DNA of 49,954 nucleotides from Bacilli bacterium. Its GTDB lineage: Bacteria > Bacillota_I > Bacilli_A > RF39 > UBA660. The notes under the pieces were generated by a model that saw only the letters and a program-made list of their open reading frames with translations, was not told the DNA's origin and did not search any database. How positions within the stretch are numbered: the stretch's first letter is position 1; each line of letters starts with the position of its first letter. The position numbers were made by a program, and so were the translations under genes. Shown here piece by piece: positions 16,852-38,484 of this stretch. The DNA lies in the NCBI GenBank assembly GCA_028684255.1, contig JAQUGJ010000001.1:1-49954 (forward strand). Direction: 5' to 3'.

Positions 16852-16907
16852 TAAACCACCTAGTACATTATATGCAAATAAATATTATGATAAAGTGCAT
16901 TTAACTA

Positions 16908-19061
16908 TTAAACATCGTCATTAAAGAAATCATCAAAGAATTGATCATCAGTAATAAGGTTCTTATTATCCGACTTTTTATTTTCTTCATCTGGTATTTC
17001 AATTGGTTTAGGTTTTTCTTCAATAAAACCAGGTAATGTAACATTTATTTGTTCATCTTCTATTTTACTTATAATCTCTACTGGTTCATTATCCAATTCT
17101 TCAATGAAAGGCGATTTAATTTCTTCTACATTTTCAATTGTTGGCCTTAATATATTTCGATTTTGTGAAGACAATTCGCGCTCTCTTTTTTCTTCTTCTT
17201 CCAATTCCGCTATTTTAGCATCTATTCTTTTTACTAATTCATCTATATTAAATGCTCCTGGTTTTGAAGATTCTGACTGTCTTTCAGTTGCTCTACTAGC
17301 ATTGTCTACAGGATTAAGATTACCTAAAACTTCTTTTATCTTTTGTTCTTTTTTATTATCAACAAAAGCTTTTATATCAAAATAACGAACTTGTCCTGGA
17401 GTTCTCTCTGGGTAAGACGCTTTAATATAATCTTTTCCCCAAGCATTTTTTTCTAACATTTTAAAATTAGGTGTCATTTCAGTCTTATATGGCATCATTC
17501 TAGTTCTAATTGTAATAATTGACCATTGCTTTAAACGTTGTAAGTCACTTACTGTTACTAATGGTGTTGAAACTGTTTTATCTTTTTCTTTAGATTTTTC
17601 TTCTCCACACATTTTACTTATTTCTTCTAAAGCACTTATTTCACTACTAATTAAATAAATTATATTTCCACAATTTCCTTTTATTGTTTCGCCATTTTCT
17701 TTGCCATATACTTGCGTTAATTGTGCAAAGTTTTGAATAATAAAATTAAATCTAATCTTTCTACTACGTGCTGCAGTAACCATAGTTGTTACATCTTTAA
17801 GTGGGGGCATATTTGCAAATTCGTCTAGAATAAAATTGGTTCTAAATGGTAATTTCCCACCACTTTCTTGTGCTATATCAATTAATGTTTCATAGCATTG
17901 TTTAATAAATATTGTTACTAATGAATGATATGTCTTTTTTTCATCTTGAACTACTAAGAATACAGCTGTTTTCCTTCGTCCGATTTCTTTCATATCAAAG
18001 TCACTTTTTGATAACATTTCCGATAAATTTTGACGAGACGAAAATAGTTTAATTTTTTGTTTAAATACAGATAAAATACTACTTTTTGTTTCATTTGGTG
18101 CCATTAATGTACTTACTGCATTTATATACGCTGGTGATGTTGGATCTTTATAACTAAAGTATTCTTTAATATAGGTAGTATTACCCATTTTTTCTTCACC
18201 AGCACTAGTCATTAAGTTAATACTACTTAAATTTATTTCTGCTTCATCAGCATCATCGAATAATCCAAGTGCCAAACCTGCAAAATAATCCGCTGATGTC
18301 TTTTCCCAGAAAGGATCTTGTCCTTGGGCATTCTCATCATAAAGAATATTCATTGCTAAGTCATCTAATAATTCGTTAGCCTTATCTTGATTTCCATTTC
18401 TATATAATGAATATGGTAATGCTAAAGGATTCCATGAATTACCCCTTTGTGGATCACGGAAATTAAGTAAAACAATATTATATCCTTTTTCCTTTAATTC
18501 TATAGCATTGTTTTCATATATTTCACCCTTAGGGTCAGTAATAATCATCGATTCGCCTTTTTTGGCTAGTACTTTTACTAACGGTTGTACTAACATTTCT
18601 GTTTTACCAGAACCGGTTGATCCGATAATTAAACTGTGAAATTCACCATTATCTACCCATAATTCTTTACCATTATTTATAAGCGGAATACCTGCTACAT
18701 CAGAAGTTGGTGATGCAGGATCAACTCTTTTTAAAACTTTTTTCATTTCTTTAGTTGTTGCCCATCTTGCATAACCTTTATCTTTCTTAGCATTTGTTGA
18801 AATTCCAATACCTTTTTCTCTATCAAAAAATAAAGAAGAAACACTAAGCATTATAAATACTAATGCAAAAAAGAAGAAGACAAAAGTACCCGCTATTTTT
18901 TCTTTATTAAATGCAGGTAGTGGATCAAAACCATGAAAAGTACCTGTTCTTGAAAATGTTGTTAAATTTAATGTCGCTATTGCTACTAAATATAATAAAG
19001 CTACACAAAAAATTAAGAAAATTACTATATCTTTTGCATCTGCTCTTATTTTTAATTTCAT
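16908..19061 (-). CDS. type IV secretion coupling protein, VirD4/TraG family
   Basis: Two N-terminal TM helices, GYARWAT motif, Walker A GSTGSGKTE, Walker B-like FILDEF, acidic C-terminal tail. Confidence 0.85.
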   Translation of the reverse strand: MKLKIRADAKDIVIFLIFCVALLYLVAIATLNLTTFSRTGTFHGFDPLPAFNKEKIAGTFVFFFFALVFIMLSVSSLFFDREKGIGISTNAKKDKGYARWATTKEMKKVLKRVDPASPTSDVAGIPLINNGKELWVDNGEFHSLIIGSTGSGKTEMLVQPLVKVLAKKGESMIITDPKGEIYENNAIELKEKGYNIVLLNFRDPQRGNSWNPLALPYSLYRNGNQDKANELLDDLAMNILYDENAQGQDPFWEKTSADYFAGLALGLFDDADEAEINLSSINLMTSAGEEKMGNTTYIKEYFSYKDPTSPAYINAVSTLMAPNETKSSILSVFKQKIKLFSSRQNLSEMLSKSDFDMKEIGRRKTAVFLVVQDEKKTYHSLVTIFIKQCYETLIDIAQESGGKLPFRTNFILDEFANMPPLKDVTTMVTAARSRKIRFNFIIQNFAQLTQVYGKENGETIKGNCGNIIYLISSEISALEEISKMCGEEKSKEKDKTVSTPLVTVSDLQRLKQWSIITIRTRMMPYKTEMTPNFKMLEKNAWGKDYIKASYPERTPGQVRYFDIKAFVDNKKEQKIKEVLGNLNPVDNASRATERQSESSKPGAFNIDELVKRIDAKIAELEEEEKRERELSSQNRNILRPTIENVEEIKSPFIEELDNEPVEIISKIEDEQINVTLPGFIEEKPKPIEIPDEENKKSDNKNLITDDQFFDDFFNDDV

Positions 19062-19070
19062 GTTTACCTC

Positions 19071-19751
19071 CTACATTTGGTTTGCTTTTTTATTTTTTAA
19101 ATAGAAGAATGTAATAATTCCAACAATTGAAACTATTATTATTCCAGCAAAAATAATCATGTTAATATAAAAACTAAAATTCGGTTTTTCTGGTACCTCG
19201 ATTATTTTATAAGAAAATTTAATCGGTTTATTTAAGAAATTATCTCGATTGATTTTCCATATATAAGTCTTTCCATCAACTTCATCAGCATTATGATCAA
19301 TTGCTTCTACATCTTCCGCTAAATTAAATCTAATTGCCATTCTTTCAGAATAATAATATTGTGAATCAAAGCAAAGGAATTGTTCACTTGTTGTAATTAA
19401 ATATTTATCTTCTGTCTTAACACTTGAAAAAATATCATAACATGTTGCTGCTAAATAAAGTCCTGTAAATTCCGAAAAATTATTATATGTGTAATCGTAA
19501 TAAATATCCAATCCTTTATCAGTATATTCATAACTCGTATTATACAATTCGGTCGAAAAGGGATCTGTAAATACAGATACTGGTTCAATATCACTGTTAC
19601 TTTTTATTTCAGCACCAAGAAATTCATTAATACCATACGAAACCTTTGCCCTTTCAGTCAAGGAACTTCCACTAATATCTAAATCATATGTAGCGGAACA
19701 TCCTGTAAAAAATATTACAAACATTAAAAACCAAATTATTTTTTTTTTCAC
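19071..19751 (-). CDS. hypothetical lipoprotein with C-terminal TM anchor (T4SS-associated)
   Basis: Lipobox FFTG/C at residues 14-18 and C-terminal TM IIFAGIIIVSIVGIITFFYL. Sits between the hydrolase and the coupling protein. Confidence 0.6.
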   Translation of the reverse strand: MKKKIIWFLMFVIFFTGCSATYDLDISGSSLTERAKVSYGINEFLGAEIKSNSDIEPVSVFTDPFSTELYNTSYEYTDKGLDIYYDYTYNNFSEFTGLYLAATCYDIFSSVKTEDKYLITTSEQFLCFDSQYYYSERMAIRFNLAEDVEAIDHNADEVDGKTYIWKINRDNFLNKPIKFSYKIIEVPEKPNFSFYINMIIFAGIIIVSIVGIITFFYLKNKKANQM

Positions 19752-19760
19752 AATATCCCT

Positions 19761-22184
19761 CTATCCCAATAAAAATACAAAACCTGCAAAATAATATTTT
19801 CTATCACCACTAGTATAACCTAAAACACTATCAGCTGTCATCTCTCTACCATATCTAACTTCTACCCCGCTCCAACCAGAATAGCTACTCCAAGGTTTTT
19901 TCTTCCAACCATCACTAATGATAATTGAAGAAACTTTTCCAGAGCTTGAATAATTTACCTTTTCTACAATTGCAACGTGACCATAACCATTTCTGTAAAT
20001 ACCTGAGGCATCTTGATAGTTACTTCCACCTGCTGCTATTCCACCAGCCCAAGAAACTACTGAACCTGGTTTTGCTTCATTAACATTTGTTGAAACCGGA
20101 AAGTAATTGGAAAGGCCACTATAAGCACCCCATCCAGCCCCATCACCAGCATGATTTCTAACGGCATTTATAGCAGCTGCTCTCAGCGATGCTTCCATGT
20201 CCGAAAACATTAATATTTCAATTGCCCTATATTTGGAATACCACGGACATTGACCGATATTTCCAGCCTGACTATTATATATTTCTTTTCCATTAAAATC
20301 AACAGCCTGTCTGATTTCGTTTGAATCTTGTCCCTCTCTTATTGGTGCTGAACTACTATAAGTACCACCAATTAAACCTCCAGTAACTTTTTTTATTAAA
20401 ATATTTGTATCGTTTTTAAAATATTTTAATAAAACATTATCACTTGTTCTATCTGTTTCTGGCGTAATATCATTATAAATGTCTTGTAAATCTTGTAATT
20501 TAATATCACTTTCAGGTGTTGAACTTTCTGAAGAACCGTGTTCTATATATTCAAACTTTGTTCTATGTGAAGGCAGAATATCATCGTTTAAGTATAAAAC
20601 CTTGCCCCTACTAGGTAATAATTTGTCTTTTAATTCTTGTTCAGGTTCTACATACTTCAAATGTTCTTCATTTTCTACTGTATATAGGTCTAAAGGTTCT
20701 TTGCAAAAACCAGTTTCGTATAATATATATGACCTAAAAACAATTGCCGCTGCTTCGTCTATTACGTCATTGGTACTACTACCATAAACATTTTTTAGAT
20801 TTTTAACGAATCCTGCTACTAAATTTTCTAATTCATAAGGTTGCTCAACTAATGTATCATTTAAATTAACTGTTACACCAGTACATATATTTACAACAGC
20901 ACCTCTATTACTCATTAATTCTTCTAATATATATTCATAATATTCACTTGTCGAAATAATTTGTTCAGCTGCCATTTTTATTTCATTTTCTGTTGGTATG
21001 TATTCTATGTTTCGTAATTCTGCTATTTTTAATTCTGCTTTTTCTTCTATCTCTTTCTTCTCACTTGAAGAAAGCATATCACCATTTACTTTTATTAATA
21101 CTCCAGCTTTATAAGTATAACCTTCATCTGTTAACCATCTTCTAAATTTTTGATTATAATAATTTTCCTTTAAAACATCAGACAAATAATCTTCTATTAA
21201 AAATTGTTTGTATTTTTCTTCATCATAATCATATTTGACTCTTGTTACTATGGATTTGCTCATTTTATCAGTTGAAGGATCTTTTATTTCTGTACACGTT
21301 GATTCAATTACTTTACTTGTTAATTTTTTAGCAATTAATCTAAGTTTACTTTCAGAATTATTGTTTGTAAAAGTGTTTTCAAAAAAATTACCAATTGCTC
21401 CCCACCAAGAAGTATCTGGAGTATATTTTTCAATTAATGAAGCATAATTTGAATCACCTTCTATTGCTTTTTGATATACTTCATTATAATTACCACATGG
21501 ATGAGCATCTGAAACATTAGATGCCGCTAGAATTCCATCGTAATCAATTCCAACAGGATCTTCCTCATCGCTGTACCATAGATAATTTTCACCCAATACT
21601 TTTAATTCATTTTTTGATATTGAAAGAGAAGTCGTTCCATATAATAATTCATAATAACCATCTTCCGGTAATTTTTCATACATTATTGTCGATACTAGAA
21701 CAGGAATATTTATAATTGGACCATATGAAAATCTAGCATATCCGGCTTGATTCTCATTATACTTATCGTCATTTAATTCGCCAGACATTTTATTGCCGCT
21801 ATTTACATAGTACAAATCATATATAGTCTTGGTTGCATCAAAGAAAGCTTGCTCAGCTTCTGCTTCATCTCTTGCCAAACACTCTGCATCGGTTCCATAA
21901 CATCCCGAAGTAAATAAATTACCTACTTTTGTTCCAAAGGTTCCAACACTCTCTAAAACGTTACCAACGATCCCCGTAACAAGGATTACTGGTGCCATTG
22001 CTGCCATTATTATTATAACAACAACAGCGCCAAAAAAGACAACAGGAATAATTGCTAAAGCAATTTTTACCATTAGCATTGTCTTTTTAACACTCTTTAA
22101 GGAATCTTTTTCTGATTTATAATTTTTTATATTTTCTGATAAGTTTTTTCTTGTTTTATTTAAAAACGAACCAAATTTTCCCAT
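19761..22184 (-). CDS. membrane-anchored peptidoglycan hydrolase with C-terminal CHAP domain (VirB1 / PrgK / TcpG functional analogue)
   Basis: N-terminal TM; C-terminal CHAP catalytic Cys (GQCPWYSKYRA) and His (GYGHVAIVEKV). Central segment VAGFV...DEAAAIVFRSYILYE is faintly SpoIID-like. Confidence 0.75.
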   Translation of the reverse strand: MGKFGSFLNKTRKNLSENIKNYKSEKDSLKSVKKTMLMVKIALAIIPVVFFGAVVVIIIMAAMAPVILVTGIVGNVLESVGTFGTKVGNLFTSGCYGTDAECLARDEAEAEQAFFDATKTIYDLYYVNSGNKMSGELNDDKYNENQAGYARFSYGPIINIPVLVSTIMYEKLPEDGYYELLYGTTSLSISKNELKVLGENYLWYSDEEDPVGIDYDGILAASNVSDAHPCGNYNEVYQKAIEGDSNYASLIEKYTPDTSWWGAIGNFFENTFTNNNSESKLRLIAKKLTSKVIESTCTEIKDPSTDKMSKSIVTRVKYDYDEEKYKQFLIEDYLSDVLKENYYNQKFRRWLTDEGYTYKAGVLIKVNGDMLSSSEKKEIEEKAELKIAELRNIEYIPTENEIKMAAEQIISTSEYYEYILEELMSNRGAVVNICTGVTVNLNDTLVEQPYELENLVAGFVKNLKNVYGSSTNDVIDEAAAIVFRSYILYETGFCKEPLDLYTVENEEHLKYVEPEQELKDKLLPSRGKVLYLNDDILPSHRTKFEYIEHGSSESSTPESDIKLQDLQDIYNDITPETDRTSDNVLLKYFKNDTNILIKKVTGGLIGGTYSSSAPIREGQDSNEIRQAVDFNGKEIYNSQAGNIGQCPWYSKYRAIEILMFSDMEASLRAAAINAVRNHAGDGAGWGAYSGLSNYFPVSTNVNEAKPGSVVSWAGGIAAGGSNYQDASGIYRNGYGHVAIVEKVNYSSSGKVSSIIISDGWKKKPWSSYSGWSGVEVRYGREMTADSVLGYTSGDRKYYFAGFVFLLG

Positions 22185-22202
22185 TCAAAACACCGCCTAT
22201 TA

Positions 22203-23987
22203 TTATAGTCCGCCACCGCTTCCAAATGAATCTAATTCTTGTTCAGTAACAACTATATTTATTTGCATTCTTCTACTACCACACACAAATAAAGCTTCAC
22301 CTTGATTGTAATTCTTTATTCCTGACTTTTCATTATCATTTAAATCAATTAATTTTGATAAATCTTCAACAGCTTGTTTCTTTAATCCCATAACTAAGTA
22401 ATAAGAAGCATTATCAAATATTGCTTTTCCTTGTGTTATTACTTTAGGATCACTAAAGTCAGTTGGTTGTTGTGTAATAATAATTGTACCAGTGTTATAT
22501 TTTCTAGCACGTCTTTGTATTTGTGCTAAGAAATCAGCACCTAAAGCATTACCACCACTTAACAATACATGGGCTTCATCTACTACTAATACAGTATTTT
22601 TACTCTTATCTAAAGTTAATCCCCACGCATATTTTAATATATTAAAGAATAAAGCATTTCGAATGTTTTCGTCAGCATTCATTAATTCTCTAATGTTAAA
22701 TACAACAAATTCACTATTTGGTTTTATTGTTGTATGACCACTAAAGTAATATTTCAATTCTCTTACTAACGGTCTAATTTTTAATTCTAATTTTTCTAAA
22801 ATTTCTTTTTCATGTGATTGTTCTGGCATCGATAATAATCTACCTTTTATTGTAACGTGTACATCTTCAAAAGTAGGATAATCTGCCGAAGTCATTTTAC
22901 TGAAATCGGTATTAAAGTCAATACCAAATCTTTTATATGTTTCTTGAACTATTTCACTAAACATATTTACTACATCTTCTTCTATGGAAGGATCATAATA
23001 TTTCATAAATGCTTTAATTGTTTGGAAAGTTCTAGTTAATATTGTATAACCAAGACCTGATGCTAATTCTTCTTCGTCAGCATCCATAACAATTTCTAGT
23101 GGATTTATCATACCAAATTCTCCACCTTTACCTAAGTCAATAAAGTCACCATTAAATGCTTTAGCCATATCTTCTAATTCACCTTCAGGGTCAATTAATA
23201 CAACTTGATATCCATTTCTAAAATGTGATCTAAAAATTAACTTAGCAGCAGTAGATTTACCACTACCAGAAGTACCTAATATAATTAAATTAGCATTGTT
23301 TCTATTATGTTCTTTTTTAGTTTGATATAAAAACTGATTAAATAGAATAACTCCTCCAGAGAAATCAACTCCTAATAAAGTTGAAAGGCCTGGATCTTTG
23401 ATGCTATCAAAAATAAATGGATACATTGCTGCTAACGTTGGTGCTGCAATTGGTGTACCAATTCTATTTTCAACATCTTGATTTGGGAATATTGGAATTA
23501 TTGATTTAAATACTTGTTCTTGTTGGAATCTTAAAGGGATTGCCCTTAATTCCATAGCATCTAAGTAATTTTTTATTTGCATTTTTTTGCTTACTAAATC
23601 TTCTTCTGAATCTGCACTTATCATTATGTGCATTTGAAAGTCATATATTTTTGCTTGCGTAGACGCTAATTCTTGAATAAACATTTCTAACGATTCATAA
23701 TCTTGTCTAATTCTTTCTTGAATTGTCTTATCATTTTCTTCTTGATAACGGATTTTCAAATCTGCTATTTCTTTATTTAACATCTTACTAACCATACTAA
23801 ATGGTATTGGAATATGTTTGATTACTACCTTTATTCCTGACATACTTGTTATATTAGAAAGGAATCCTGGACTTATCATTTTTGGAAAAGAAATAACCGA
23901 AAATATAGTTGTAAATTTATCATTAATGATAATTTCTGCTGGTTTAAATTCCAACGCCTTTGGCGCTATTTGATTTCTAATTTCCAT
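22203..23987 (-). CDS. T4SS ATPase, VirB4 / TraE / PrgJ family
   Basis: Walker A GTSGSGKST and Walker B VLVVDEAH; N-terminal VirB4-type domain; start overlaps the upstream stop (TAATG). Confidence 0.85.
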   Translation of the reverse strand: MEIRNQIAPKALEFKPAEIIINDKFTTIFSVISFPKMISPGFLSNITSMSGIKVVIKHIPIPFSMVSKMLNKEIADLKIRYQEENDKTIQERIRQDYESLEMFIQELASTQAKIYDFQMHIMISADSEEDLVSKKMQIKNYLDAMELRAIPLRFQQEQVFKSIIPIFPNQDVENRIGTPIAAPTLAAMYPFIFDSIKDPGLSTLLGVDFSGGVILFNQFLYQTKKEHNRNNANLIILGTSGSGKSTAAKLIFRSHFRNGYQVVLIDPEGELEDMAKAFNGDFIDLGKGGEFGMINPLEIVMDADEEELASGLGYTILTRTFQTIKAFMKYYDPSIEEDVVNMFSEIVQETYKRFGIDFNTDFSKMTSADYPTFEDVHVTIKGRLLSMPEQSHEKEILEKLELKIRPLVRELKYYFSGHTTIKPNSEFVVFNIRELMNADENIRNALFFNILKYAWGLTLDKSKNTVLVVDEAHVLLSGGNALGADFLAQIQRRARKYNTGTIIITQQPTDFSDPKVITQGKAIFDNASYYLVMGLKKQAVEDLSKLIDLNDNEKSGIKNYNQGEALFVCGSRRMQINIVVTEQELDSFGSGGGL

Positions 23988-24553
23988 TAAGACATCACCG
24001 TCCCAAACTCTGTGGTTTGCCCACCATTTAAGAAGTTATCTAAAATCATTCTTAAATCATCGTTAGTTGTTTGCATTGAAGTTAATCCCGCTGTTGCAAA
24101 AGTATTAATTAAAGCTCTTATTCTTTTTTGAATTAATTCATCATTTTTTTCTCTAAATAATAAGAAATATTCAGTATCTACTACGTTATTATTAGTAAAC
24201 GAGTTAGCTTTGTTTATATCGTCTAAGATTAATTTTCTTTTTATATTATCTTGAACTGAATTATAGTGGAATTGTAATTGCGATAGATATAAATTAATAT
24301 CTACAGGTCTATCTGCTACTACTATCCAAAATTCATAATCCACTATGTTATAAACATTTCTCAAGTTAGCAATTACACTATTTTGCATATCTTGTTCCAT
24401 AATAAATATATTTCTTGGAACTATTTTAACCCCAGTCACTTTTAAACCATTGTCTAAAATAATCATTCCATTTGTAATATTTTTTACCGGAATATTATCT
24501 GCTGTGTACTTACTTTTTTTGGGTTTGACTGTCTTCTTTGAATTCGTCGCCAT
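23987..24553 (-). CDS. hypothetical cytoplasmic protein, translationally coupled to VirB4; resembles a stand-alone VirB4 N-terminal-type domain
   Basis: 188 aa with no TM. The segment IPVKNITNGMIILDNGLKVTGVKIVPRNIFIMEQD parallels IAPKALEFKPAEIIINDKFTTIFSVISFPKMISPG at the VirB4 N-terminus. Confidence 0.45.
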   Translation of the reverse strand: MATNSKKTVKPKKSKYTADNIPVKNITNGMIILDNGLKVTGVKIVPRNIFIMEQDMQNSVIANLRNVYNIVDYEFWIVVADRPVDINLYLSQLQFHYNSVQDNIKRKLILDDINKANSFTNNNVVDTEYFLLFREKNDELIQKRIRALINTFATAGLTSMQTTNDDLRMILDNFLNGGQTTEFGTVMS

Positions 24554-24857: not shown

Positions 24858-24874
24858 TTAGTAACACTCTCCTT

Positions 24875-29297: not shown

Positions 29298-29300
29298 TTA

Positions 29301-29648: not shown

Positions 29649-29675
29649 ATTTTCTTCCTCCTTAAATCTAATTAT

Positions 29676-29704
29676 ATATTACCTTATTTTTTTTGATTTT
29701 GCAA
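29676..29704 (-). promoter_or_regulatory. putative sigma-A promoter for the 115-aa VirB2-like gene
   Basis: Minus strand TTGCAA (29699-29704), 17-nt spacer, TAATAT (29676-29681). Confidence 0.4.
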
Positions 29705-29724
29705 TACCTTTTTACACTTATTTG

Positions 29725-30753: not shown

Positions 30754-30765
30754 TAAATTACCTCC

Positions 30766-31182: not shown

Positions 31183-31186
31183 TGCA

Positions 31187-31615
31187 TCACTCCCTAAACC
31201 TATATATATTATCTGTTTTTGAAAATATCGGTATTTTGACTAATTGTCCTATAAGCGGAAATTCCCAGGAAATATACGTCATAACACCATATGTATCGTG
31301 ATATTCAGAAAAATCTTTTTCATATCGATATATACAATATCCTTGATTGTTATCGTTAACCAAAACACCTTCTCCTTGATTAACTGCACATCTATTACCT
31401 TTAGTAACATTATATCCAATATTTCTAACAAGAAGATTAATTTCTGCGGTTGCATTAGGAGTATATCCTTCATATTTTTCTAATATCACAATGATACTAC
31501 TATTGACTTTGTAAGCACGATAGTAACTTATTATTGCACCTAAAAAAGCAAATATAATAACAATAAAAATTATTATAACATTATACAACATTACATTACC
31601 AACACTTTCCCTCAT
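31187..31615 (-). CDS. putative minor pilin / pseudopilin (paralog A)
   Basis: N-terminus MRESVG plus hydrophobic helix. Conserved positions shared with paralog B: Y.RA.K, EK.EG.T, GY, RC, YC.Y.Y, FP.I..L..IP, IY. Confidence 0.55.
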   Translation of the reverse strand: MRESVGNVMLYNVIIIFIVIIFAFLGAIISYYRAYKVNSSIIVILEKYEGYTPNATAEINLLVRNIGYNVTKGNRCAVNQGEGVLVNDNNQGYCIYRYEKDFSEYHDTYGVMTYISWEFPLIGQLVKIPIFSKTDNIYRFRE

Positions 31616-31636
31616 TTTAACACCTCGTCAATAGAT

Positions 31637-31660
31637 AGAAAACCTATTCCAAAGAATAGA
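31637..31660 (-). terminator. weak stem-loop / partial terminator after the pilin gene
   Basis: Minus strand TCTATTC-TTTG-GAATAGG followed by TTTTCT, starting 3-4 nt after the stop. AT-rich 6-7-bp stem, so possibly only an attenuator or stabiliser. Confidence 0.3.
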
Positions 31661-31662
31661 TT

Positions 31663-31893
31663 TTAATTTTCTAAATCACCAATACAGTCGTTATATGTAC
31701 TTGCATCATACGTTCCTGATGTTGTTTGATTACATCTTCCGTTTCTCCACTCACCACCGGCTTGTGAACAACAAGATTTTTTACCAGTTGTTGCCATCAT
31801 ATTTGTAATAAGTGGAGTGGCAATAGCAGCAACGATTGCTATTAAAACGATCGCTATAACTGTTAAATTTGCTTCACCAGCTGCTTCTTTCAT
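31663..31893 (-). CDS. small (76 aa) Flp/type IV-like pilin candidate, cysteine-rich
   Basis: MKEAAGEANLTVIAIVLIAIVAAIATPLITNMM hydrophobic N-terminus followed by a 40-aa polar head with 4 Cys. Lies directly after TadC, with its own promoter and a GAGGTGG RBS. Confidence 0.6.
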   Translation of the reverse strand: MKEAAGEANLTVIAIVLIAIVAAIATPLITNMMATTGKKSCCSQAGGEWRNGRCNQTTSGTYDASTYNDCIGDLEN

Positions 31894-31916
31894 TTTATCA
31901 CCACCTCATCATTTTT

Positions 31917-31946
31917 ATTATATCACATAAAAATTGTCTCATTCAA
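31917..31946 (-). promoter_or_regulatory. strong sigma-A-type promoter for the pilin gene
   Basis: Minus strand TTGAAT (31941-31946), 18-nt spacer, TATAAT (31917-31922), with extended -10 TG (TGaTATAAT). Confidence 0.55.
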
Positions 31947-31965
31947 GTTTTAAATATCGTGTTTA

Positions 31966-32754
31966 CTATATTCCCATGATTGTAAGCATCGAAATAAGTA
32001 ATAATACTATTATCCCACCACCAGTAGATGCTAACATGATCATTGTTTGCCTTTCCATTCGATCCAATCTGTCAGAATACCTTTGCTCTCTAGCTTTATT
32101 TTGTAAAGTAGAAACATTTTTAGAAAACATTACGATTTGTTCGTGTTTGTTTTCTTGCGATCCGATTCCTAATCTATATAACAATCTCATCATACGCATT
32201 GAATCTCTTACCGGGTATTCCTTTGCAAATTCCATATATGGTTCTACAGTTGAATCTCCAGAATCAATACGTGATACTAATCTTCTTAGACCGGGTCTAA
32301 ATATCTCTGGTGCGGTATCAATTGATCTTGATAACGCAACCGGAACAGTATAATGTTGAATTAATATTTCAAGACTTTTTAAAAAATGCGGTAACATTAA
32401 GTTTATTTTATATAAATTTACACGATAATAGCTTTTTAATTTAGTATATTGCAATTTAAATGTTACAAAACCTGCCGCTAGGGCTCCTATTAATACTAAA
32501 AAACTATATTGACTCATAAAGATAAATAAAACTGCAAAAATCGTAATTATTCCTGTTTGAACTCTCTTACTAAACAATTTTACTACATCTACATCTTCAC
32601 CGTATCTTATAGTCAATAGAAACTTATAATCATCTTCCATTAAAAACCTTAAATATGGTTCTGTATCTGTAATGAACTTTTTAGTATCTATCTTATTATT
32701 AACTTGAAATATAAGAATTATAATAGCGGCTATTATTAAAAATGTTATTTCCAT
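31966..32754 (-). CDS. TadC-like platform protein (T2SS-F family)
   Basis: 262 aa; N-terminal TM, central TM pair, cytoplasmic helical domain (PVALSRSIDTAPEIFRPGLRRLVSRIDSGDS) and C-terminal TM. Overlaps the TadB-like stop. Confidence 0.6.
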   Translation of the reverse strand: MEITFLIIAAIIILIFQVNNKIDTKKFITDTEPYLRFLMEDDYKFLLTIRYGEDVDVVKLFSKRVQTGIITIFAVLFIFMSQYSFLVLIGALAAGFVTFKLQYTKLKSYYRVNLYKINLMLPHFLKSLEILIQHYTVPVALSRSIDTAPEIFRPGLRRLVSRIDSGDSTVEPYMEFAKEYPVRDSMRMMRLLYRLGIGSQENKHEQIVMFSKNVSTLQNKAREQRYSDRLDRMERQTMIMLASTGGGIIVLLLISMLTIMGI

Positions 32755-33659
32755 TATTCAGCCCCCACATCTTCATTATAATATTTTTCGCCATTTAACA
32801 AGAAATATGTGTTAACTGCTATGATAAAATGCAAGAAGACTTGAATTTTCCAATCTGTTAACATTTCAATGTATTTTTCTACTCCAACTAATATTTGGAT
32901 TCCAAATACCATTAAATATAAAATGAATCCGAATTGTACGAATTTCTTATGAAAAGTGGCACGATCCATTCTGTCTCTATAAACACTTTCAACCAACATA
33001 TCGATGTCTAACGACATATTTTCTAATGCATCACTTGAATCTTTAGAACCTTCATTAGTAATTTGCAAAAATAATTGATGCATGTTTTTAACAATATAAT
33101 AATCATATTTTGCATTCATATAGTCTAACGATTGAGTAATTGTCCCGTTTTCATAAGCCATATCGATCATTACTTGAACATCTTGTTTAACAGGATCTTC
33201 TAAAACTCCTGACTCATAAACACCTTCTAGAGCTTTTACAAACGATTGTGTCGTTGCAAATTCCATTATTGTATTTGTTGTATATACTTGAATTTGTTCA
33301 AATATATATTCACTATATAATCTTTTACATCTTAAATAAGTAAGATAAGGAATAGTTGCTACTGCTAAAAAAGCATATATTATTGAAATAATCAAATTAT
33401 AAAAATAAAAATATGATATTACACCTGCAACTCCTGCAAATAAAACAACTTGTATAACATATTGTCTTGGTGTATATTCTTGGCCTAAATCTTTTACTTT
33501 TTGTCTTATCATTTTAAATGAATAAGAAGCATATCTATCATAAAAACCACCAACCTGATTTATTATAAATTTGTATGTGTTTTCAGTTGATACGTTACGA
33601 TAAAAAACAACAAATAAAAGTATTCCAGCAATTATTGCAAAAATTATTCCTGTAGGCAT
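32754..33659 (-). CDS. TadB-like platform protein (T2SS-F family)
   Basis: 301 aa; same TM/helical-domain layout as TadC-like; directly downstream of the CpaF-like ATPase. Confidence 0.55.
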   Translation of the reverse strand: MPTGIIFAIIAGILLFVVFYRNVSTENTYKFIINQVGGFYDRYASYSFKMIRQKVKDLGQEYTPRQYVIQVVLFAGVAGVISYFYFYNLIISIIYAFLAVATIPYLTYLRCKRLYSEYIFEQIQVYTTNTIMEFATTQSFVKALEGVYESGVLEDPVKQDVQVMIDMAYENGTITQSLDYMNAKYDYYIVKNMHQLFLQITNEGSKDSSDALENMSLDIDMLVESVYRDRMDRATFHKKFVQFGFILYLMVFGIQILVGVEKYIEMLTDWKIQVFLHFIIAVNTYFLLNGEKYYNEDVGAE

Positions 33660-33674
33660 TTTTCATCCTCCTTA

Positions 33675-34823
33675 CTATATTTCTAATGTCTCAATCTTCT
33701 CATCTTCAACTGGTACTTGTGAGTTATTAAACTCTTTTAATATTTCACTATTTTCAGACTTGTTTTGTGATAAATCTATTGCATCCTTAGATAAAATTAC
33801 ACCTTGTCCTTCTAAATATTCTAATAAATATCGACTAGGTTCTTTTCTTACCACGTTACCTGTACTTGTCTTTTTATAAATAGTATTATATACTGCTTCA
33901 TTTTCTTCAGTAACATAAAACTCCGTTACTTCAGCAATTTCACGATGAAATCTACCTGTATTTTTATCTTGATATCCTCTTACATATACTCCTAATTGAA
34001 CATATCGATAAATTGATTTTAAGAATTGATCAATTTCTTGATTTGTTTCTAACAAACTATACATACGATTAGGTATCGAAGAAGCTTTGTCAGCATGGAT
34101 TGTCGATAATATGTAGTGTCCTGATGAAATAGAGTTACGAACAGCCATTACTGCTTCAGCACTACGAACTTCGGATAATAATATCCATTTAGGATTCTGT
34201 CTCATACATGTTACTAATACATCACTATACGAGGCAATATTATTTGTCTTCATTGTGACAATATCTCTAGTTGGATATATTTTATCCAAGTGAAGTTCTA
34301 GAGTATCTTCAATAGTTATAATTTTTTCATTTTCTTTGATTTTTGACGCTAAATATTTAACAAATTCTGTTTTACCAGAACCGGTTTCGCCACAAACTAT
34401 AATATTACAATGTCCTTTAACGCACTGTACTAAAAAATCATGAACATCTAGAGTAATATAATTTTCTTCAATAATTTTTTCTTTTTGAAGTCTTATTTTT
34501 GCTGGTGTCTTACGGATAACAACCGCGATTCCATTTTGAGCAACAGAATCATGAACGAAATTAAGGCGCAATTCAGCACTTTCAGCATCCAGAAAGGGAT
34601 GAGCCATATTAAATGTTTTTCCCATTACGTTAGAACATTGAAACGCTAATTTTTCAATAAATATATTGTTAATCTTGGGGTTTTCTGTTCTATAAACACC
34701 TTTAGATAATGTTTTTAACCATATTTGTCCATTGTTACTATAAGAAATATCAGTTATATCGTCATTTTCCATATATTCTTTTAATGGACCAAAATCAATT
34801 TGGGAAAACATATTTCCTGTCAT
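33675..34823 (-). CDS. CpaF/TadA-type secretion ATPase (T2SS-E / VirB11 superfamily)
   Basis: Walker A CGETGSGKTE, Walker B region ILLSEVR, His box STIHAD; followed by two T2SS-F-like genes. Confidence 0.8.
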   Translation of the reverse strand: MTGNMFSQIDFGPLKEYMENDDITDISYSNNGQIWLKTLSKGVYRTENPKINNIFIEKLAFQCSNVMGKTFNMAHPFLDAESAELRLNFVHDSVAQNGIAVVIRKTPAKIRLQKEKIIEENYITLDVHDFLVQCVKGHCNIIVCGETGSGKTEFVKYLASKIKENEKIITIEDTLELHLDKIYPTRDIVTMKTNNIASYSDVLVTCMRQNPKWILLSEVRSAEAVMAVRNSISSGHYILSTIHADKASSIPNRMYSLLETNQEIDQFLKSIYRYVQLGVYVRGYQDKNTGRFHREIAEVTEFYVTEENEAVYNTIYKKTSTGNVVRKEPSRYLLEYLEGQGVILSKDAIDLSQNKSENSEILKEFNNSQVPVEDEKIETLEI

Positions 34824-34834
34824 TTTACTCCTCC

Positions 34835-35647
34835 TTAATCGTTGTTTGGTATTATTAATTCACCATTATCATTTGTTTCAGGTTCAATATTTACTGTTTG
34901 ACTTGTTATATATTGTTCTAAATATTCTAATCCTTTTTGAACACCTTCACCAGCAATCGTACCACCTTTTGGTATAATTTTTAATTCTACATTATTGATA
35001 TACGATGCTTTTAAAATTAGCATAAATATCTCTTTTGGCAAACCATAAGTGATACTAGAAGGCACACGATTTTCATCAAGATTTTCAAATACTGATTGAC
35101 CACTACTATCTTTTACAGTTAATACTTTAACGTTTTCAACTAATTTTCCTACAAAAACTTTTCCGTTTTCTTCACCCTTCATATAAATATCAATTTTATT
35201 ACCAGGATATATAGAGTTTCCATATGTTTGTTCAATGTCAACTTCCATAAAAACAGGAACTTGTCCTTCCTCTAATTCAGAGAATGCAAAATCCGGTAAA
35301 TTCTCTTTTGAAACTATAACATCTTTAAAAAACATACTTCCTTGTGGTATAACAGCGTTTACACTTGTGTATTTACCAATTATTTCTCTACTTGATAATA
35401 AAACATTAGAACTTATAGAAATAGATGGCACACTGATATAAGAAATCATTTGATTGGTGATTTCTGTTTTTGGTTGAATAGTCATAGACGCAATTGGAAT
35501 TTCAATTGGTTCAACCGCAGTTTGAACTTGTTTATTATATCCAAAATATAATAAAGAAATTATAACTACTACTCCTACTATGGTAATTGTATTTTTATTT
35601 GTGAAAAACTTTTTTAATTTAAATCCTAATCCGCTATTCATTTTCAT
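34835..35647 (-). CDS. CpaB/RcpC-like pilus assembly protein (SAF domain)
   Basis: N-terminal TM, then a SAF-like segment (IASMTIQPKTEITNQMISYISVP...IIGKYTSVNAVIPQGSMFFKDVI) and a beta-rich C-terminal domain. Confidence 0.55.
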   Translation of the reverse strand: MKMNSGLGFKLKKFFTNKNTITIVGVVVIISLLYFGYNKQVQTAVEPIEIPIASMTIQPKTEITNQMISYISVPSISISSNVLLSSREIIGKYTSVNAVIPQGSMFFKDVIVSKENLPDFAFSELEEGQVPVFMEVDIEQTYGNSIYPGNKIDIYMKGEENGKVFVGKLVENVKVLTVKDSSGQSVFENLDENRVPSSITYGLPKEIFMLILKASYINNVELKIIPKGGTIAGEGVQKGLEYLEQYITSQTVNIEPETNDNGELIIPNND

Positions 35648-35661
35648 CTTCCCTTTCTACC

Positions 35662-36063
35662 CTAATATGGCAATTCGAGTATTGCATCTGTCTTGCTCGA
35701 TAATTCAAATTCCATTATGTCATTGTTTACTGTACTCGCTGTTGTTGTTGAAATTTTAATGCTTACTTTTGGTGGATATTCATTGATATCATATATATCT
35801 AATTTGTATGTGTAAGATAAGTCCGCTTTTTCAGCAAAGCGTCTATAAAAATTTTCAGCAAACTTTTCTCTGTCGATTTTTATTATTCCACTTGTACGAT
35901 ATGCTGCTATATCAATCGAATCATACATAGCTGCACTTGTTGCTTCTTTAAGTAAATTAGTATTACTTTCCTCTGTATTTGTCAGCGATTGAAACAAAAA
36001 CACTAAAGCTATTCCCAATACGCCAACACCAACAATAAATATTCCCCACATTGACTCTTTCAT
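35662..36063 (-). CDS. putative pseudopilin-like protein
   Basis: N-terminus MKESMWG plus hydrophobic helix IFIVGVGVLGIALVFLF, then a ~100-aa globular part. Confidence 0.45.
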   Translation of the reverse strand: MKESMWGIFIVGVGVLGIALVFLFQSLTNTEESNTNLLKEATSAAMYDSIDIAAYRTSGIIKIDREKFAENFYRRFAEKADLSYTYKLDIYDINEYPPKVSIKISTTTASTVNNDIMEFELSSKTDAILELPY

Positions 36064-36078
36064 ATTACACCACTTTCA

Positions 36079-36738
36079 TTATTTGTATTTTTTATTTTCA
36101 TTTTTTCTTAATAAAAATATAAATGTCGAACAAACTACGATTATACTGATCAATACGTATAAATAATATTCATATATATATTCTAAAATCACTTCATACC
36201 AAGCTTCTTCTAAAACTACTATTTCTTTTTCTACTTCAGGAACATTCTTATACTCTTTGATTTTATTTTTAAATTCTTGGTAACTTATATTTAAAAGTTG
36301 CCATTTGTTACATAGGTAATAATCTTCTATATCATTACAAATGTCATCTTCAGAAAATCTATTATATTTTGGAAATGTAACATATGTTGTTAAAATAAGT
36401 CTCCCTTTACATGCAGGCTTATTTGAATATATTCTAAATTGATAAGCACCACCTGGCACATAATTATTTTTTTCAATTGTAATTTTATCTGTATATCGAT
36501 AATTTTCTAACTTATCGACATCATATATGTAAATGTTTGGATTTAAATTTGCAATCGTTAACTTAAATCTGACTTCTGAATTTATTCCCGATTCTACTTT
36601 ATAATAATAATCATAACTAAAATTCACATTTGATGCAATTTTCTGTAATTCTGAAAGTTCTGAAAAGCTACATTCTGCTTTTACTTTATATGGGGCTAAT
36701 ACTATAAGAATAAATATTATATATCTTATGCTTTTCAT
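36079..36738 (-). CDS. hypothetical secreted protein with C-terminal TM anchor
   Basis: Signal peptide ending KVKA/EC, four ectodomain Cys, C-terminal TM plus basic tail. Confidence 0.55.
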   Translation of the reverse strand: MKSIRYIIFILIVLAPYKVKAECSFSELSELQKIASNVNFSYDYYYKVESGINSEVRFKLTIANLNPNIYIYDVDKLENYRYTDKITIEKNNYVPGGAYQFRIYSNKPACKGRLILTTYVTFPKYNRFSEDDICNDIEDYYLCNKWQLLNISYQEFKNKIKEYKNVPEVEKEIVVLEEAWYEVILEYIYEYYLYVLISIIVVCSTFIFLLRKNENKKYK

Positions 36739-36771
36739 TTACTAACCTCCATTAACTATTTTATCATATTA

Positions 36772-38364
36772 TTACTTTAGTTGGTAATTATAAATGTTAT
36801 TTCTTATTTGTATTTGTAAAGATAACGATTCAGATTCCATTATATCTTTTTTAATTTCTATATAATAATTATCCTTAACGTTAACTTTTGAAGGCGATAC
36901 CGAACTACTTATGTTGCTATATATAGTTTTACCATCCTTACTATAAATAATTTTACCAAATTTTTCTAAAAAAGTATATAGATTGTAATTATTTAAACTA
37001 TTTTCTGCGTTTTCTACTACCCCATTTATACTTAATAAAACCTTGTCGTAACGTTTATTTAAATTTGGTTTTACATACTCTAAAGAAGGATAACAATTAG
37101 AAGTAGTAGGGCAAAATCTATAATTTAAAGTAAATTTATCTTTTATTTCAAAAGCATTTATTGTAAATTGAGTATCTTTTAAATTAGTATTTTCAATAAT
37201 AACTGTTTCTTTTAAATTTACATCCGTTGTTTTATAATCATTATCAAGATGTTGATAGTTTAAATTTACTCGATCATAAACAGGATCTATTTTCCCCCAT
37301 TTAGTATCATAATTTCTTACATATCTAAAATATAAATCTCCTATATTAATATTTTTGGGAACTTCATACACTAATAAAATCTTTTTTTTATCTTTTCCTA
37401 TTTTAGCATTTTTATATGATTGTCCAATATCTAAAAAAGGAGAGCCAGTTAAATTTTTTTCATGGTAATATACTTTATCTTTATAAACTAATTGAAACTC
37501 TGTAGTGATTAAAGTTTCAGACTTGCTTAAATTAGATATTTCTGTTTCAACAACTACAAAATTGTCATCGACCATTTGAAAACCTTTATAATTATTTTGT
37601 AAAATATAAGCATTCACAACATTTATTGAATATTTATCCGTATAAAATAATTCATTCATATTAAATAACCTATTATCATTTTTAAACATTAAAAATAAGG
37701 TTGTTCCAAACATTCCTGCAACAATAAACAAAATAACAAAAAAATTAAATTTTTTTTCAATATAATAATATTTTATAAATCTTTTAGTTTTTCTAAAAAA
37801 TCTTTTAAAACCTTCTGTATCAACGCTAAAACTAACTTCTACTTCTTCAGCATCAGACTCAGCAACTTCTAAAGATTTTAATTCTTCACTAAAACCAAAT
37901 TTTTTAACATCTATTCCAGTCGCTCTAACTAAAAATATTAAAGCACTTCCAATTTGAAAATAAAACAATAATTGTACTATATCTCTTACAAAGTTTAATT
38001 CACGAAGTTCCATAATACGCTTTTCTAATTCAAGCATATTAGAATAAGAAAAGTTATAAATAATTAATGACGCTAATGCAATTACAATGTTTACGACATA
38101 AAAAACAACCGGTTTTTGTTTTCTAAGTAAAACCGCTAAAACAATGATTAAAAAAGCTAAAAACACAAAAGGCAATATAAACATTGCTTGATTATATGTT
38201 CCTACCGCATCGATTATAGTATCACTTTGGTCCATTATATAAGCATTATAAAACTTTAATATAATATTAGTTCTAAATGCCAAATAAATCATTAAGGTTG
38301 CTAAAACGAAATGTAAAAAGCGGAAATGTTTTATTAAAAATGCATAGGGTCTTTTTAAAATCAT
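36772..38364 (-). CDS. hypothetical polytopic membrane protein with large extracytoplasmic beta-rich C-terminal domain (first gene of cluster)
   Basis: About 5 TM helices, then ~300 aa of Y/N/K-rich domain. The track start is a GTG at 38373, which falls inside AAGGTAGGTG. I prefer ATG at 38362-38364 (MILKRPY), 6 nt after that RBS. Confidence 0.55.
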   Translation of the reverse strand: MILKRPYAFLIKHFRFLHFVLATLMIYLAFRTNIILKFYNAYIMDQSDTIIDAVGTYNQAMFILPFVFLAFLIIVLAVLLRKQKPVVFYVVNIVIALASLIIYNFSYSNMLELEKRIMELRELNFVRDIVQLLFYFQIGSALIFLVRATGIDVKKFGFSEELKSLEVAESDAEEVEVSFSVDTEGFKRFFRKTKRFIKYYYIEKKFNFFVILFIVAGMFGTTLFLMFKNDNRLFNMNELFYTDKYSINVVNAYILQNNYKGFQMVDDNFVVVETEISNLSKSETLITTEFQLVYKDKVYYHEKNLTGSPFLDIGQSYKNAKIGKDKKKILLVYEVPKNINIGDLYFRYVRNYDTKWGKIDPVYDRVNLNYQHLDNDYKTTDVNLKETVIIENTNLKDTQFTINAFEIKDKFTLNYRFCPTTSNCYPSLEYVKPNLNKRYDKVLLSINGVVENAENSLNNYNLYTFLEKFGKIIYSKDGKTIYSNISSSVSPSKVNVKDNYYIEIKKDIMESESLSLQIQIRNNIYNYQLK

Positions 38365-38439
38365 TTTTTTCACCTACCTTATATATTTAGTATACAACAA
38401 AACACGCAAAAAAAAAAGGCAAAACTTTTTATTTACAAC

Positions 38440-38473
38440 TTAATTAAAAATAAAAAGAAGTAAATTACTTCTT
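38440..38473 (-). terminator. rho-independent terminator after tRNA-Leu
   Basis: Minus strand AAGAAGTA-ATT-TACTTCTT (38455-38473) followed by TTTTATTTTT. Confidence 0.55.
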
Positions 38474-38484
38474 TGTTTCCTTTA

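Follow-up and report, generated by a model that had tools for sequence, protein, structure and literature searches.

A type IV secretion system (T4SS) encoded beside a tRNA gene raises the question whether such a locus is a mobile island, the remains of one, or a machine that the cell keeps for its own use. Here the question is asked of a 49,954-nucleotide (nt) stretch of DNA from a Bacilli bacterium (GenBank assembly GCA_028684255.1, contig JAQUGJ010000001.1, positions 1 to 49,954; hereafter the window), in which 21 co-directional open reading frames (ORFs) form an uninterrupted run on the minus strand at 16908..38373. The upstream half of this cluster encodes a Tad-like pilus module and the downstream half a T4SS with VirB4 and VirD4 ATPases. 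We find it likely that the cluster is a vertically inherited, host-fixed, conjugation-derived contact-and-transfer machine of RF39-like small-genome Bacilli, serving the cell itself. In cis it has none of the modules by which a mobile element processes its DNA, integrates and is maintained, and comparison with related loci suggests that it is a lineage-wide core locus, not a recent mobile island or a tRNA insertion. Host-fixed machines derived from conjugation are a known kind; new are the RF39-like lineage and the coupling to a Tad-like pilus. A sequence-only reading of the same DNA had proposed a domesticated or very old insertion whose T4SS is not obviously dedicated to self-transfer, a view supported by the conserved gene order and downstream junction, the native composition, the tight VirB4 clade and the absence of any mobility gene from the window and from 1.18 Mb of related loci.

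Conservation and composition of the cluster

A metagenome scan with the secretion ATPase encoded by ORF5 gave 80 loci, across which this protein is 71-83% identical, and gene order in the loci was followed by tblastn of all window proteins. From ORF1 to VirB4 the order is the same in about 45 loci from metagenomes or metagenome-assembled genomes (MAGs) that are long enough to judge, their sources being gut, rumen and sludge metagenomes. Both modules are contiguous and co-oriented in the approximately 20 loci that span the two. At the far end, the VirD4-rhodanese-RmuC junction is kept in 7/7 loci that reach it, with a VTT gene in between in 5/7; these seven come from several lineages, and their VirB4 proteins are 79-84% identical to that of the window. 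Across many lineages VirB4 is 68-84% identical. Conservation of the motors (VirB4 79-84%, TadA 77-82%, the separately encoded VirB4 N-terminal domain 75-78%, VirD4 67-71%) can be compared with that of the neighbouring gene products in the same loci: ScpA 54-63%, ScpB 44-54%, rhodanese 48-60%, VTT 49-55% and RmuC 69%. One of the contigs carrying the cluster is a 1.04-Mb scaffold, which means that the cluster takes up about 2% of a small genome. As 21 kb is kept in genomes of about 1 Mb and the motors are more constrained than ScpAB, it seems that the machine benefits the cell directly and is not kept for self-propagation.

The VirB4 protein places the cluster in a narrow group. A search of proteins clustered at 90% identity returned more than 7000 matches, the best 120 of which are all 78-100% identical to the window's protein. 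Among 1.84 billion representatives of 50%-identity clusters, the clade is one full-length representative (72% identical), and beyond it stand two outliers (45% and 42%), followed by ordinary VirB4s, all at 33% identity or less. The 45% outlier (P0122) was considered as a mobile sister group and proved uninformative, being a singleton on a 2-kb contig whose own best matches are the same clade. The matches that carry names are listed as Bacilli, Bacillales or Firmicutes bacterium, or as Candidatus Fimihabitans intestinipullorum, which is filed at NCBI under Mycoplasmatota incertae sedis and was assigned by its describers to GTDB order RF39, family CAG-822 (PMC8035907). RF39 has been described as highly reduced and auxotrophic (PMC12306168). 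Nothing relevant on RF39 together with T4SS, Tad, pili or conjugation turned up in the papers available for searching.

The cluster is compact (97.8% coding, largest intergenic gap 94 nt, two overlapping gene pairs) and native in composition, with codon and k-mer usage indistinguishable from that of the housekeeping flanks. Its G+C content is 28.8%, compared with 27.1% and 27.2% in the two flanks, in a window of about 27% G+C whose real genes all lie on the minus strand. G+C at third codon positions is 0.165 against 0.147 in the flanks, relative synonymous codon usage correlates at 0.987 between cluster and flanks (0.991 between the flanks), and tetranucleotide usage at 0.978 (0.981 between the flanks). 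The resemblance to the flanks noted earlier by eye thus agrees with all four measures. Upstream of the cluster lie scpA and scpB, downstream the rhodanese gene, VTT/DedA, rmuC and uvrA, and the remaining genes of the window are housekeeping genes as well (lysS, dus, ackA, a PASTA kinase with a PP2C phosphatase, rlmN, rsgA and rpe). Three flanking ORFs with housekeeping neighbours had no Pfam match at the thresholds used: 41416..42966 (516 amino acids, aa), 11264..11887 (207 aa) and 1394..2044 (216 aa).

Mobility genes and the neighbouring tRNA

The borders of the cluster consist of the following features:

38485..38571, minus strand: tRNA-Leu(CAA), found by ARAGORN and Rfam; context, outside the machine
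38374..38484, minus strand: 111-nt spacer, read as an AT-rich hairpin and T-run after the tRNA, followed by the presumed operon promoter and ribosome-binding site
16852..16907, minus strand: 56-nt VirD4-rhodanese junction, with neither terminator nor repeat

That the cluster begins 111 nt after the 3' end of tRNA-Leu(CAA), as first described, is true for the listed start of ORF1, a GTG at 38373. The true start is probably the ATG at 38364, three codons later, as the family alignment (consensus MILRKPYAF) indicates, and the spacer between tRNA and ORF would then be 120 nt. A consensus scan of 38374..38484 gave no convincing promoter or terminator. A scan for terminator-like sites found none between cluster genes and none after VirD4, so the earlier observation that VirD4 runs into the rhodanese gene without a terminator stands, and the same junction is seen in related loci L003-5 and L086-89.

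Pfam and NCBIfam scans of the 21 cluster ORFs found no relaxase, integrase, transposase, Rep or ParB family, which bears out the initial statement that recombinase, relaxase, replication and partition genes are absent. The 8 opposite-strand and 27 flanking ORFs scanned in the same way gave no match to a relaxase, to a recombinase or transposase, or to Rep or ParB families. With the MobP3 relaxase of the Bacillus thuringiensis plasmid pBMB67 as query, no homolog was detected in the window or in 89 related loci (1.18 Mb), and a megablast of the cluster against plasmids gave no match. The absence of a copy of the tRNA 3' end at the far boundary was likewise upheld: the tRNA 3' 25-mer occurs once in the window at up to 3 mismatches, and the longest word common to both borders is 11 nt, a length expected by chance (shuffle mean 10.7, maximum 15). 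No border repeats stood out above the AT-rich background.

The framing of the locus as an island at a tRNA, in contrast, turned out to be misleading, as the tRNA travels with scpB and no insertion event or empty site came to light. In the window the scpB-tRNA-Leu unit occupies 38485..39171. The tRNA-Leu(CAA) adjoins scpB in L001, L008, L025, L050, L051, L054 and L055, wherever the cluster sits. In L001, a distant Bacilli MAG (ScpB 51% identical), it follows scpB with no cluster within 10 kb downstream (L001:10001-10661), and L025 and L055 have the scpAB-tRNA unit in inverted orientation immediately upstream of the cluster, the tRNA being at the end of the unit away from it. Because of these two arrangements, the tRNA is assigned to the scpAB unit and not to the cluster, and its adjacency to the cluster is incidental. 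In L073, where scpAB is likewise inverted, no tRNA was detected in the available stretch. A ScpB search of genome contigs for empty sites gave two distant loci only (51% and 39% identity), the window's own species not being among them, and no empty scpB-tRNA-rhodanese site. Many other loci have different housekeeping genes upstream of the cluster (pyruvate formate-lyase with its activase, cinA, or an ABC ATPase), and Pfam scans of ten upstream neighbours found none with a mobility family.

Absent mobility genes and an adjoining tRNA could also be expected from a decaying integrative and conjugative element (ICE) that has lost its integrase and relaxase and is heading for deletion. This explanation is close to refuted, as all 21 ORFs are intact, including the Walker motifs of the three ATPases (TadA-like, VirB4 and VirD4), the motors are 68-84% identical across many lineages in conserved order, the composition is native, and the tRNA is linked to scpB instead of the cluster.

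A working conjugation apparatus with its relaxase and origin of transfer (oriT) in another part of the chromosome, or provided by small mobilisable elements, is a more serious alternative, although in our judgement an unlikely one. Its cargo would be DNA, with chromosomal segments or integrative and mobilisable elements (IMEs) mobilised in trans, in the manner of an Hfr strain or a helper. VirD4 scores higher than the curated cut-off for one family of conjugal coupling proteins, the nearest characterised relatives are all DNA-transfer systems (pBMB67/pAW63, the mycoplasma ICE and a Clostridioides difficile conjugative transposon, CTn; PMC1196294, PMC12857230), and relaxase and coupling-protein genes can sit away from virB4 (PMC12102498). 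However, neither the 50-kb window nor the stretches up to about 10 kb from the cluster in the 89 loci yielded a relaxase. For a function that serves only donation, it would also be unusual to be retained order-wide and under very strong purifying selection when genomes measure about 1 Mb.

Parts of the machine

Hydrophobic segments are absent from only four of the 21 proteins, namely VirB4, the 188-aa VirB4 N-domain protein, the TadZ-like protein and the TadA-like ATPase, which agrees with the short list of soluble proteins drawn up at first reading. The pilus module consists of the following genes:

35662..36063, minus strand: ORF3, 133 aa, DUF5411 protein (Pfam PF17424, E 8.7e-47), pilin-like, candidate minor pilin
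34835..35647, minus strand: ORF4, 270 aa, CpaB/RcpC-like (Pfam RcpC E 6.9e-6 and TIGR03177 CpaB E 1.3e-7, both below cut-off), with an N-terminal transmembrane (TM) segment
33675..34823, minus strand: ORF5, 382 aa, secretion ATPase of the TadA/CpaF/VirB11 class (Pfam T2SSE E 1.7e-29)
32754..33659, minus strand: ORF6, 301 aa, putative TadB-like platform protein, polytopic, matching the ORF after the pBMB67 ATPase (E 3.8e-7)
31966..32754, minus strand: ORF7, 262 aa, putative TadC-like platform protein, polytopic, matching the second pBMB67 membrane ORF (E 9.8e-7)
31663..31893, minus strand: ORF8, 76 aa, candidate major pilin with a near-invariant N-terminus MKEAxGEAN(L/M)T and a hydrophobic helix
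31187..31615, minus strand: ORF9, 142 aa, TadE-like minor pilin candidate with leader M[KR]ESxG and a helix
30766..31182, minus strand: ORF10, 138 aa, pilin-like, minor pilin candidate
29725..30753, minus strand: ORF11, 342 aa, TadZ/CpaE-like by AlphaFold2 (AF2) model and Foldseek

The ATPase encoded by ORF5 has an intact Walker A motif (GETGSGKT), Walker B motif and His box, and its best NCBIfam models are VirB11, TrbB and a TadA conjugal-transfer-associated ATPase, all below their own cut-offs. The platform proteins ORF6 and ORF7 (59-75% and 50-67% conserved in relatives) had no T2SSF match in Pfam, ORF6 having no Pfam match of any kind; their names come from membrane topology together with homology to ORFs of pBMB67. 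The four pilin-like proteins (76, 142, 138 and 133 aa) have in common an MKExxG leader and a hydrophobic helix; in ORF3 the N-terminal alignment gives the leader as MKESxWG before the helix. They are without the Flp processing motif G/XXXXEY, ORF8 has no Pfam Flp match, and neither the cluster nor the related loci gave a match to Peptidase_A24 (the TadV/CpaA prepilin peptidase), whose gene may lie in another part of the genome. ORF9 and ORF10 are probably paralogs, since both as queries match one and the same ORF in L025, L028, L039 and L045. At L083:7370-8542, in a more distant group that also holds L082 and L085, the pilin-like N-terminal part of DUF5411 is joined with a Peptidase_C39_2 domain in one protein.

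In the 72-nt gap upstream of ORF8 there is a promoter-like site at 31917..31946 (TTGAAT, an 18-nt spacer, the TG of an extended -10, and TATAAT). It is possible that this is an internal promoter boosting pilin expression, and matches of this kind occur at chance rate overall in AT-rich DNA.

ORF11 had no match in Pfam, NCBIfam or PDB sequences. Its AF2 model, made from a 40-sequence alignment, has a mean predicted local distance difference test (pLDDT) of 70.6 overall and 80-93 in the C-terminal domain, which is of the MinD/ParA class with a degenerate P-loop (Walker A) GIKNATQHAGATT; the alpha/beta N-terminal domain is of low confidence. Foldseek matched the model with HypB, MinD, ParA, FlhG and FleN (E about 4e-5 to 5e-3), and hhalign aligned the protein weakly, at the P-loop, with the AAA ATPase of pBMB67. 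On this modelled fold we read the protein as TadZ/CpaE-like. A plasmid-partition ParA was considered for ORF11 and ruled out because the P-loop is degenerate, no ParB is present and the gene lies within the Tad module.

The T4SS module follows directly:

29301..29648, minus strand: ORF12, 115 aa, candidate VirB2-like pilin of the T4SS; two-helix hairpin, conserved loop GMLDLGKAVMAQKEDEIKK
27434..27892, minus strand: ORF14, 152 aa, second VirB2-like pilin candidate, an ORF12 paralog with a cleavable signal peptide
24875..27430, minus strand: ORF15, 851 aa, extended VirB6-like candidate (NCBIfam MMCAP2_0566 conjugal transfer family, E 1.2e-5, below cut-off)
24510..24857, minus strand: ORF16, 115 aa, VirB3/PrgI-like candidate with two TM segments, named by its position, which is that of the PrgI-family gene on pBMB67; overlaps the next ORF by 44 nt
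23987..24553, minus strand: ORF17, 188 aa, VirB4 N-terminal domain as a separate ORF (NCBIfam VirB4_plasma positions 92-277, E 5.5e-15)
22203..23987, minus strand: ORF18, 594 aa, VirB4 ATPase (Pfam AAA_10 and P-loop_TraG; VirB4_plasma positions 295-891, E 5.5e-103)
19761..22184, minus strand: ORF19, 807 aa, membrane-anchored cell-wall hydrolase and VirB1 analogue, with a C-terminal Pfam CHAP domain (E 2.5e-8)
19071..19751, minus strand: ORF20, 226 aa, lipoprotein with a C-terminal TM anchor, by sequence features
16908..19061, minus strand: ORF21, 717 aa, VirD4-type coupling protein (Pfam T4SS-DNA_transf E 1.8e-54, TrwB_AAD_bind and TraG-D_C)

ORF18 has intact Walker A (GTSGSGKS) and Walker B (VVDEAH) motifs and matches also the NCBIfam CD1110 family (E 1e-51) and PDB 4AG5 (E 3.6e-56), and the relatives of ORF17 match Pfam TraC-like. 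ORF21, with intact Walker A and B motifs and an acidic C-terminal tail, reaches 285.5 bits with NCBIfam conju_CD1115 and so exceeds the 250-bit cut-off. ORF12 and ORF14, positioned between the pilus and T4SS halves, are put forward as VirB2-like candidates because they are paralogous (hhalign of the ORF12-family alignment against ORF14: probability 95.7%, E 9.2e-9) and because Pfam PF18895 T4SS_pilin matches 8/21 members of the ORF12 family (best E 5e-4, the window copy being below threshold). A single-sequence AF2 model of ORF12 gave two long helices at low confidence (pLDDT 60.5). ORF15, which is 23-35% identical in relatives, has about six TM segments in its N-terminal half and a long, hydrophilic, charged, partly repetitive and poorly conserved C-terminal tail; a tandem 36-nt duplication (83% identical) at 25145..25216 lies in this tail and encodes a repeated motif of the TSETASQNK(T/A)N type. 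ORF16 is 46-62% conserved in relatives. ORF20 is a possible VirB8 analogue.

It could be asked whether the cluster is in fact two independent adjacent systems, one operon for a Tad-like adhesion pilus and another for a T4SS. In the distant relatives L082, L083 and L085 the genes that come after the Tad-like module are unrelated ones and no T4SS adjoins it, so that the two modules may act separately, and in the window the promoter-like site before the pilin gene and the gaps of 75-94 nt around ORF12-ORF14 would suit two units. The contiguity and common orientation of the modules in the loci spanning both, their presence together on pBMB67 and pAW63 (PMC1196294) and the position of the VirB2-like ORF12 directly after the TadZ-like gene leave, in our estimate, only a small chance for this explanation.

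Equally improbable to us is that the machine takes up DNA, with the pilus capturing it and the T4SS channel importing it. The archaeal Ced and Ted systems are importers of this kind, derived from T4SSs and without a relaxase, and in NCBIfam the window's VirB4 and VirD4 weakly match CedD (E 8.8e-12) and CedB (E 2.5e-5), respectively. A bacterial importer derived from a T4SS and likewise without a relaxase is known in ComB (PMC12857230), and a reduced genome could profit from imported DNA or nucleotides. However, the families of conjugative export match much more strongly. ComB-type importers are without VirD4 (PMC12857230), which is retained here at 67-71% identity, and wall hydrolases together with a Tad-type, non-retractile pilus (no PilT-like second ATPase was seen in the Pfam and NCBIfam scans) fit contact and export better.

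The remaining genes encode proteins of the cell surface:

36772..38373, minus strand: ORF1, 533 aa, with about four N-terminal TM segments and a large extracellular C-terminal domain
36079..36738, minus strand: ORF2, 219 aa, surface protein with a signal peptide, four invariant Cys and a C-terminal TM anchor
27987..29225, minus strand: ORF13, 412 aa, lipoprotein with lipobox ISGC

ORF1, which had no Pfam, NCBIfam or PDB-profile match, is the first cluster gene in 26 loci at 25-35% identity, and the position of ORF2 is conserved in 46 loci. Profile searches of PDB sequences with ORF1, ORF2, ORF11 and ORF12 gave nothing usable. In the slot of ORF13 relatives have unrelated ORFs of 207-532 aa, or none. 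Most relatives encode an extra protein of 830-1090 aa between ORF2 and the DUF5411 gene (for example L008:5622-8726, L006:830-3991, L020:6152-8755 and L031:5502-8762), which is absent from the window (a 15-nt gap, 36064..36078) and from L051. The copies that were read have a signal peptide, except the N-terminally cut copy of L029, most of them are Cys-rich, and their C-terminal region is conserved, making the protein a candidate adhesin or pilus-tip protein. The extra ORF was also considered as a hidden relaxase; this was ruled out by the signal peptides, the mostly Cys-rich sequences and the lack of a Pfam match in the L083 copy. The hydrolase slot after VirB4 is swapped by lineage: in place of the 807-aa CHAP protein of the window, relatives have Peptidase_C39_2 with SpoIID, Peptidase_M23 or a 608-aa CHAP protein (L003:11867-16996, L086:11815-14103, L088:11812-13638). 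Exposed parts are thus fast-evolving (25-35% identity) or replaced, in clusters that are otherwise highly conserved.

Proposed function and relation to known systems

If the cluster is a contact-and-transfer machine of the cell, the Tad-like pilus and the fast-evolving surface proteins would contact a neighbouring cell, the hydrolase would open the peptidoglycan, VirB3, VirB4, VirB6 and possibly a fibre of VirB2 type would form the channel, and VirD4 would recruit cytoplasmic cargo for export. The organism is probably walled, because a PASTA kinase is present and RF39 is predicted to be mostly walled (PMC10868615). Given such a machine, we have a slight preference for a role in interaction with a partner or host bacterium, by analogy with Patescibacteria, and regard it as a tentative choice; the lean comes from how well the cluster is conserved, from the diversification of its exposed parts and from the auxotrophy reported for RF39 (PMC12306168). 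The runner-up, which we hold to be somewhat doubtful, is exchange of chromosomal DNA within the population, independent of a relaxase or with a relaxase in trans, in the way of mycoplasma chromosomal transfer.

Several points weigh against a host-fixed machine inherited with the lineage. The window is placed in RF39 through one named relative, Ca. Fimihabitans. Co-divergence with ScpAB was positive but weak (Mantel test, r 0.49, exact permutation p 0.047, 6 taxa) once near-identical loci were removed, three of which had inflated r to 0.98. The upstream neighbourhood is not fixed, scpAB lying upstream of the cluster in only about 7/26 loci, and distant relatives have the Tad-like module alone, as described above. 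The names TadB/C, VirB3, VirB6 and VirB2 come from weak or positional evidence, and no analogue of VirB8 (TcpC/PrgL) was identified, the candidates ORF2 and ORF20 being without a profile match. Furthermore, a relaxase acting in trans could still allow conjugation.

RF39 is a common lineage of the human and animal gut, known only from metagenomes. A 21-kb operon that is intact across the lineage, with motors above the housekeeping neighbours in conservation, is likely to be central to its biology, and it would extend host-domesticated conjugation machines from Patescibacteria and archaea to Firmicutes with reduced genomes. One could speculate further, at rather long odds, that RF39-like Bacilli depend on this organelle to attach to and exploit, or exchange with, other bacteria, as a second, independent co-option in the style of Patescibacteria, this time within the Firmicutes and with VirB2-type pilins in a monoderm. 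If dependence on a partner were true, the operon would be a marker of lifestyle and a handle for cultivating RF39 together with a partner organism. Predictions that follow from the finding are that cells attach to partners, that recombination is mosaic and that the bacteria depend on the operon. For annotation, the locus is a caution that a T4SS beside a tRNA is not necessarily an ICE.

Of the known systems, those of plasmids of the Bacillus cereus group are nearest in gene content. The nearest plasmid-borne VirB4s, about 30% identical, are found on pBMB67-family plasmids of B. thuringiensis, and seven window proteins from both modules have homologs on pBMB67: VirD4 (30%), VirB4 (30%), the VirB4 N-domain ORF (29%), the secretion ATPase (27%), the CpaB/SAF protein (35%) and the two platform membrane proteins (21-23%). 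The order on the plasmid is MobP3 relaxase, VirD4 (CD1115 family), a hypothetical ORF, TrbL/VirB6, PrgI/VirB3, a hypothetical ORF and VirB4, and then SAF/CpaB, an AAA (TadZ-like) ATPase, a T2SS/T4P/T4SS-family ATPase, two membrane proteins and small pilin-like proteins. In the positions of the corresponding candidate genes of the window, a PrgI/VirB3-like ORF precedes the VirB4 N-domain ORF and small pilin-like ORFs follow the platform genes. A corresponding VirB3/VirB4 arrangement of 105 aa, 223 aa and 645 aa has been described from pAW63, where a VirB11-like ATPase is followed by two membrane ORFs (PMC1196294); VirB11, VirB4 and VirD4 homologs are described from pAW63/pXO2 (PMC1196294, PMC9673590), and pXO2 and pBT9727 are grouped with pAW63 as B. 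cereus-group plasmids with a monoderm T4SS and a 'VirB11'/Tad-like module. As both modules are homologous on pBMB67/pAW63, the two-module design is an established conjugation apparatus of Firmicutes. The differences are that pBMB67 has a MobP3 relaxase adjoining VirD4 as well as replication, partition (ParM) and toxin-antitoxin genes and insertion sequence (IS) elements, that the modules of pBMB67/pAW63 are in a different order whereas the window cluster is chromosomal and lineage-wide, and that the two VirB2-like genes of the window are not annotated on pBMB67. By this comparison the missing part is the relaxase adjoining VirD4. The possibility raised in the sequence-only reading, that close relatives carry the cluster on a plasmid or ICE with full mobility genes, holds at a distance only: both modules sit beside MobP3 on pBMB67/pAW63 at about 30% identity, but close relatives of this kind were not found. 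The likeness shows ancestry or kinship of a conjugative kind; it is no sign of current mobility.

The mycoplasma ICE (MICE; CDS17 VirB4, CDS5 VirD4, CDS16 VirB6-like) resembles the window in the weak VirB6 match and in its neighbouring phylogeny (Mycoplasmatota, RF39), and its machinery also moves chromosomal DNA (mycoplasma chromosomal transfer, MCT; PMC12857230). The best curated model for VirB4 is the Mbov_0397 mycoplasma-ICE ATPase (E 5.5e-103), which also covers the split N-terminal domain; at 345 bits against a family cut-off of 590, however, the protein is not a MICE equivalog. In contrast to the window, in which no transposase was found, MICE is a mobile element with a DDE recombinase (CDS22), and it is without VirB1- and VirB8-like proteins and has no Tad-type module listed (PMC12857230), whereas the window has a CHAP hydrolase and a Tad-like module. 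A type IV-filament pilus beside a T4SS is also known from the thin pilus of IncI R64/TP114 and from PAPI-1, where it serves the formation or stabilisation of mating pairs (PMC9045228; PMC12857230). Compared by description, these systems differ from the window in being diderm and mobile, with relaxases and with pili that are type IVb and not Tad-like.

A review from 2025 states that Gram-positive T4SSs are universally without VirB11 homologs, and that monoderm VirB2-like pilins occur in Patescibacteria only (PMC12857230). Contrary to these generalisations, a monoderm T4SS can apparently couple to an ATPase of the VirB11/TadA class and to candidate VirB2-like pilins. By homology, the window cluster and pAW63/pBMB67 would qualify the statement on VirB11, and ORF12 and ORF14 may qualify that on VirB2.

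The closest functional parallel appears to be the T4SS of Patescibacteria, a resemblance in function only. That system is chromosomal, clade-wide and mostly without a relaxase, has arrays of VirB2-like pilins and is reported to be needed for epibiotic growth in the one species tested (PMC12102498; PMC12857230; Wang et al. 2023 as cited in these). The likeness consists of small-genome auxotrophs with a chromosomal, monoderm T4SS related to MPF-FATA, no relaxase in the cluster, VirB2-like paralogs (two genes in the window versus six in one Saccharibacteria species; PMC12857230) and type IV-filament pili in the same organisms. The window belongs to a different, RF39-like lineage of Bacilli, and since its VirB4 is at most 33% identical to all others outside its own clade, the two outliers apart, it would not belong to the VirB4 clade of Patescibacteria, as far as tested. 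What further distinguishes it from the Patescibacteria system is that the Tad-type pilus module is part of the same operon.

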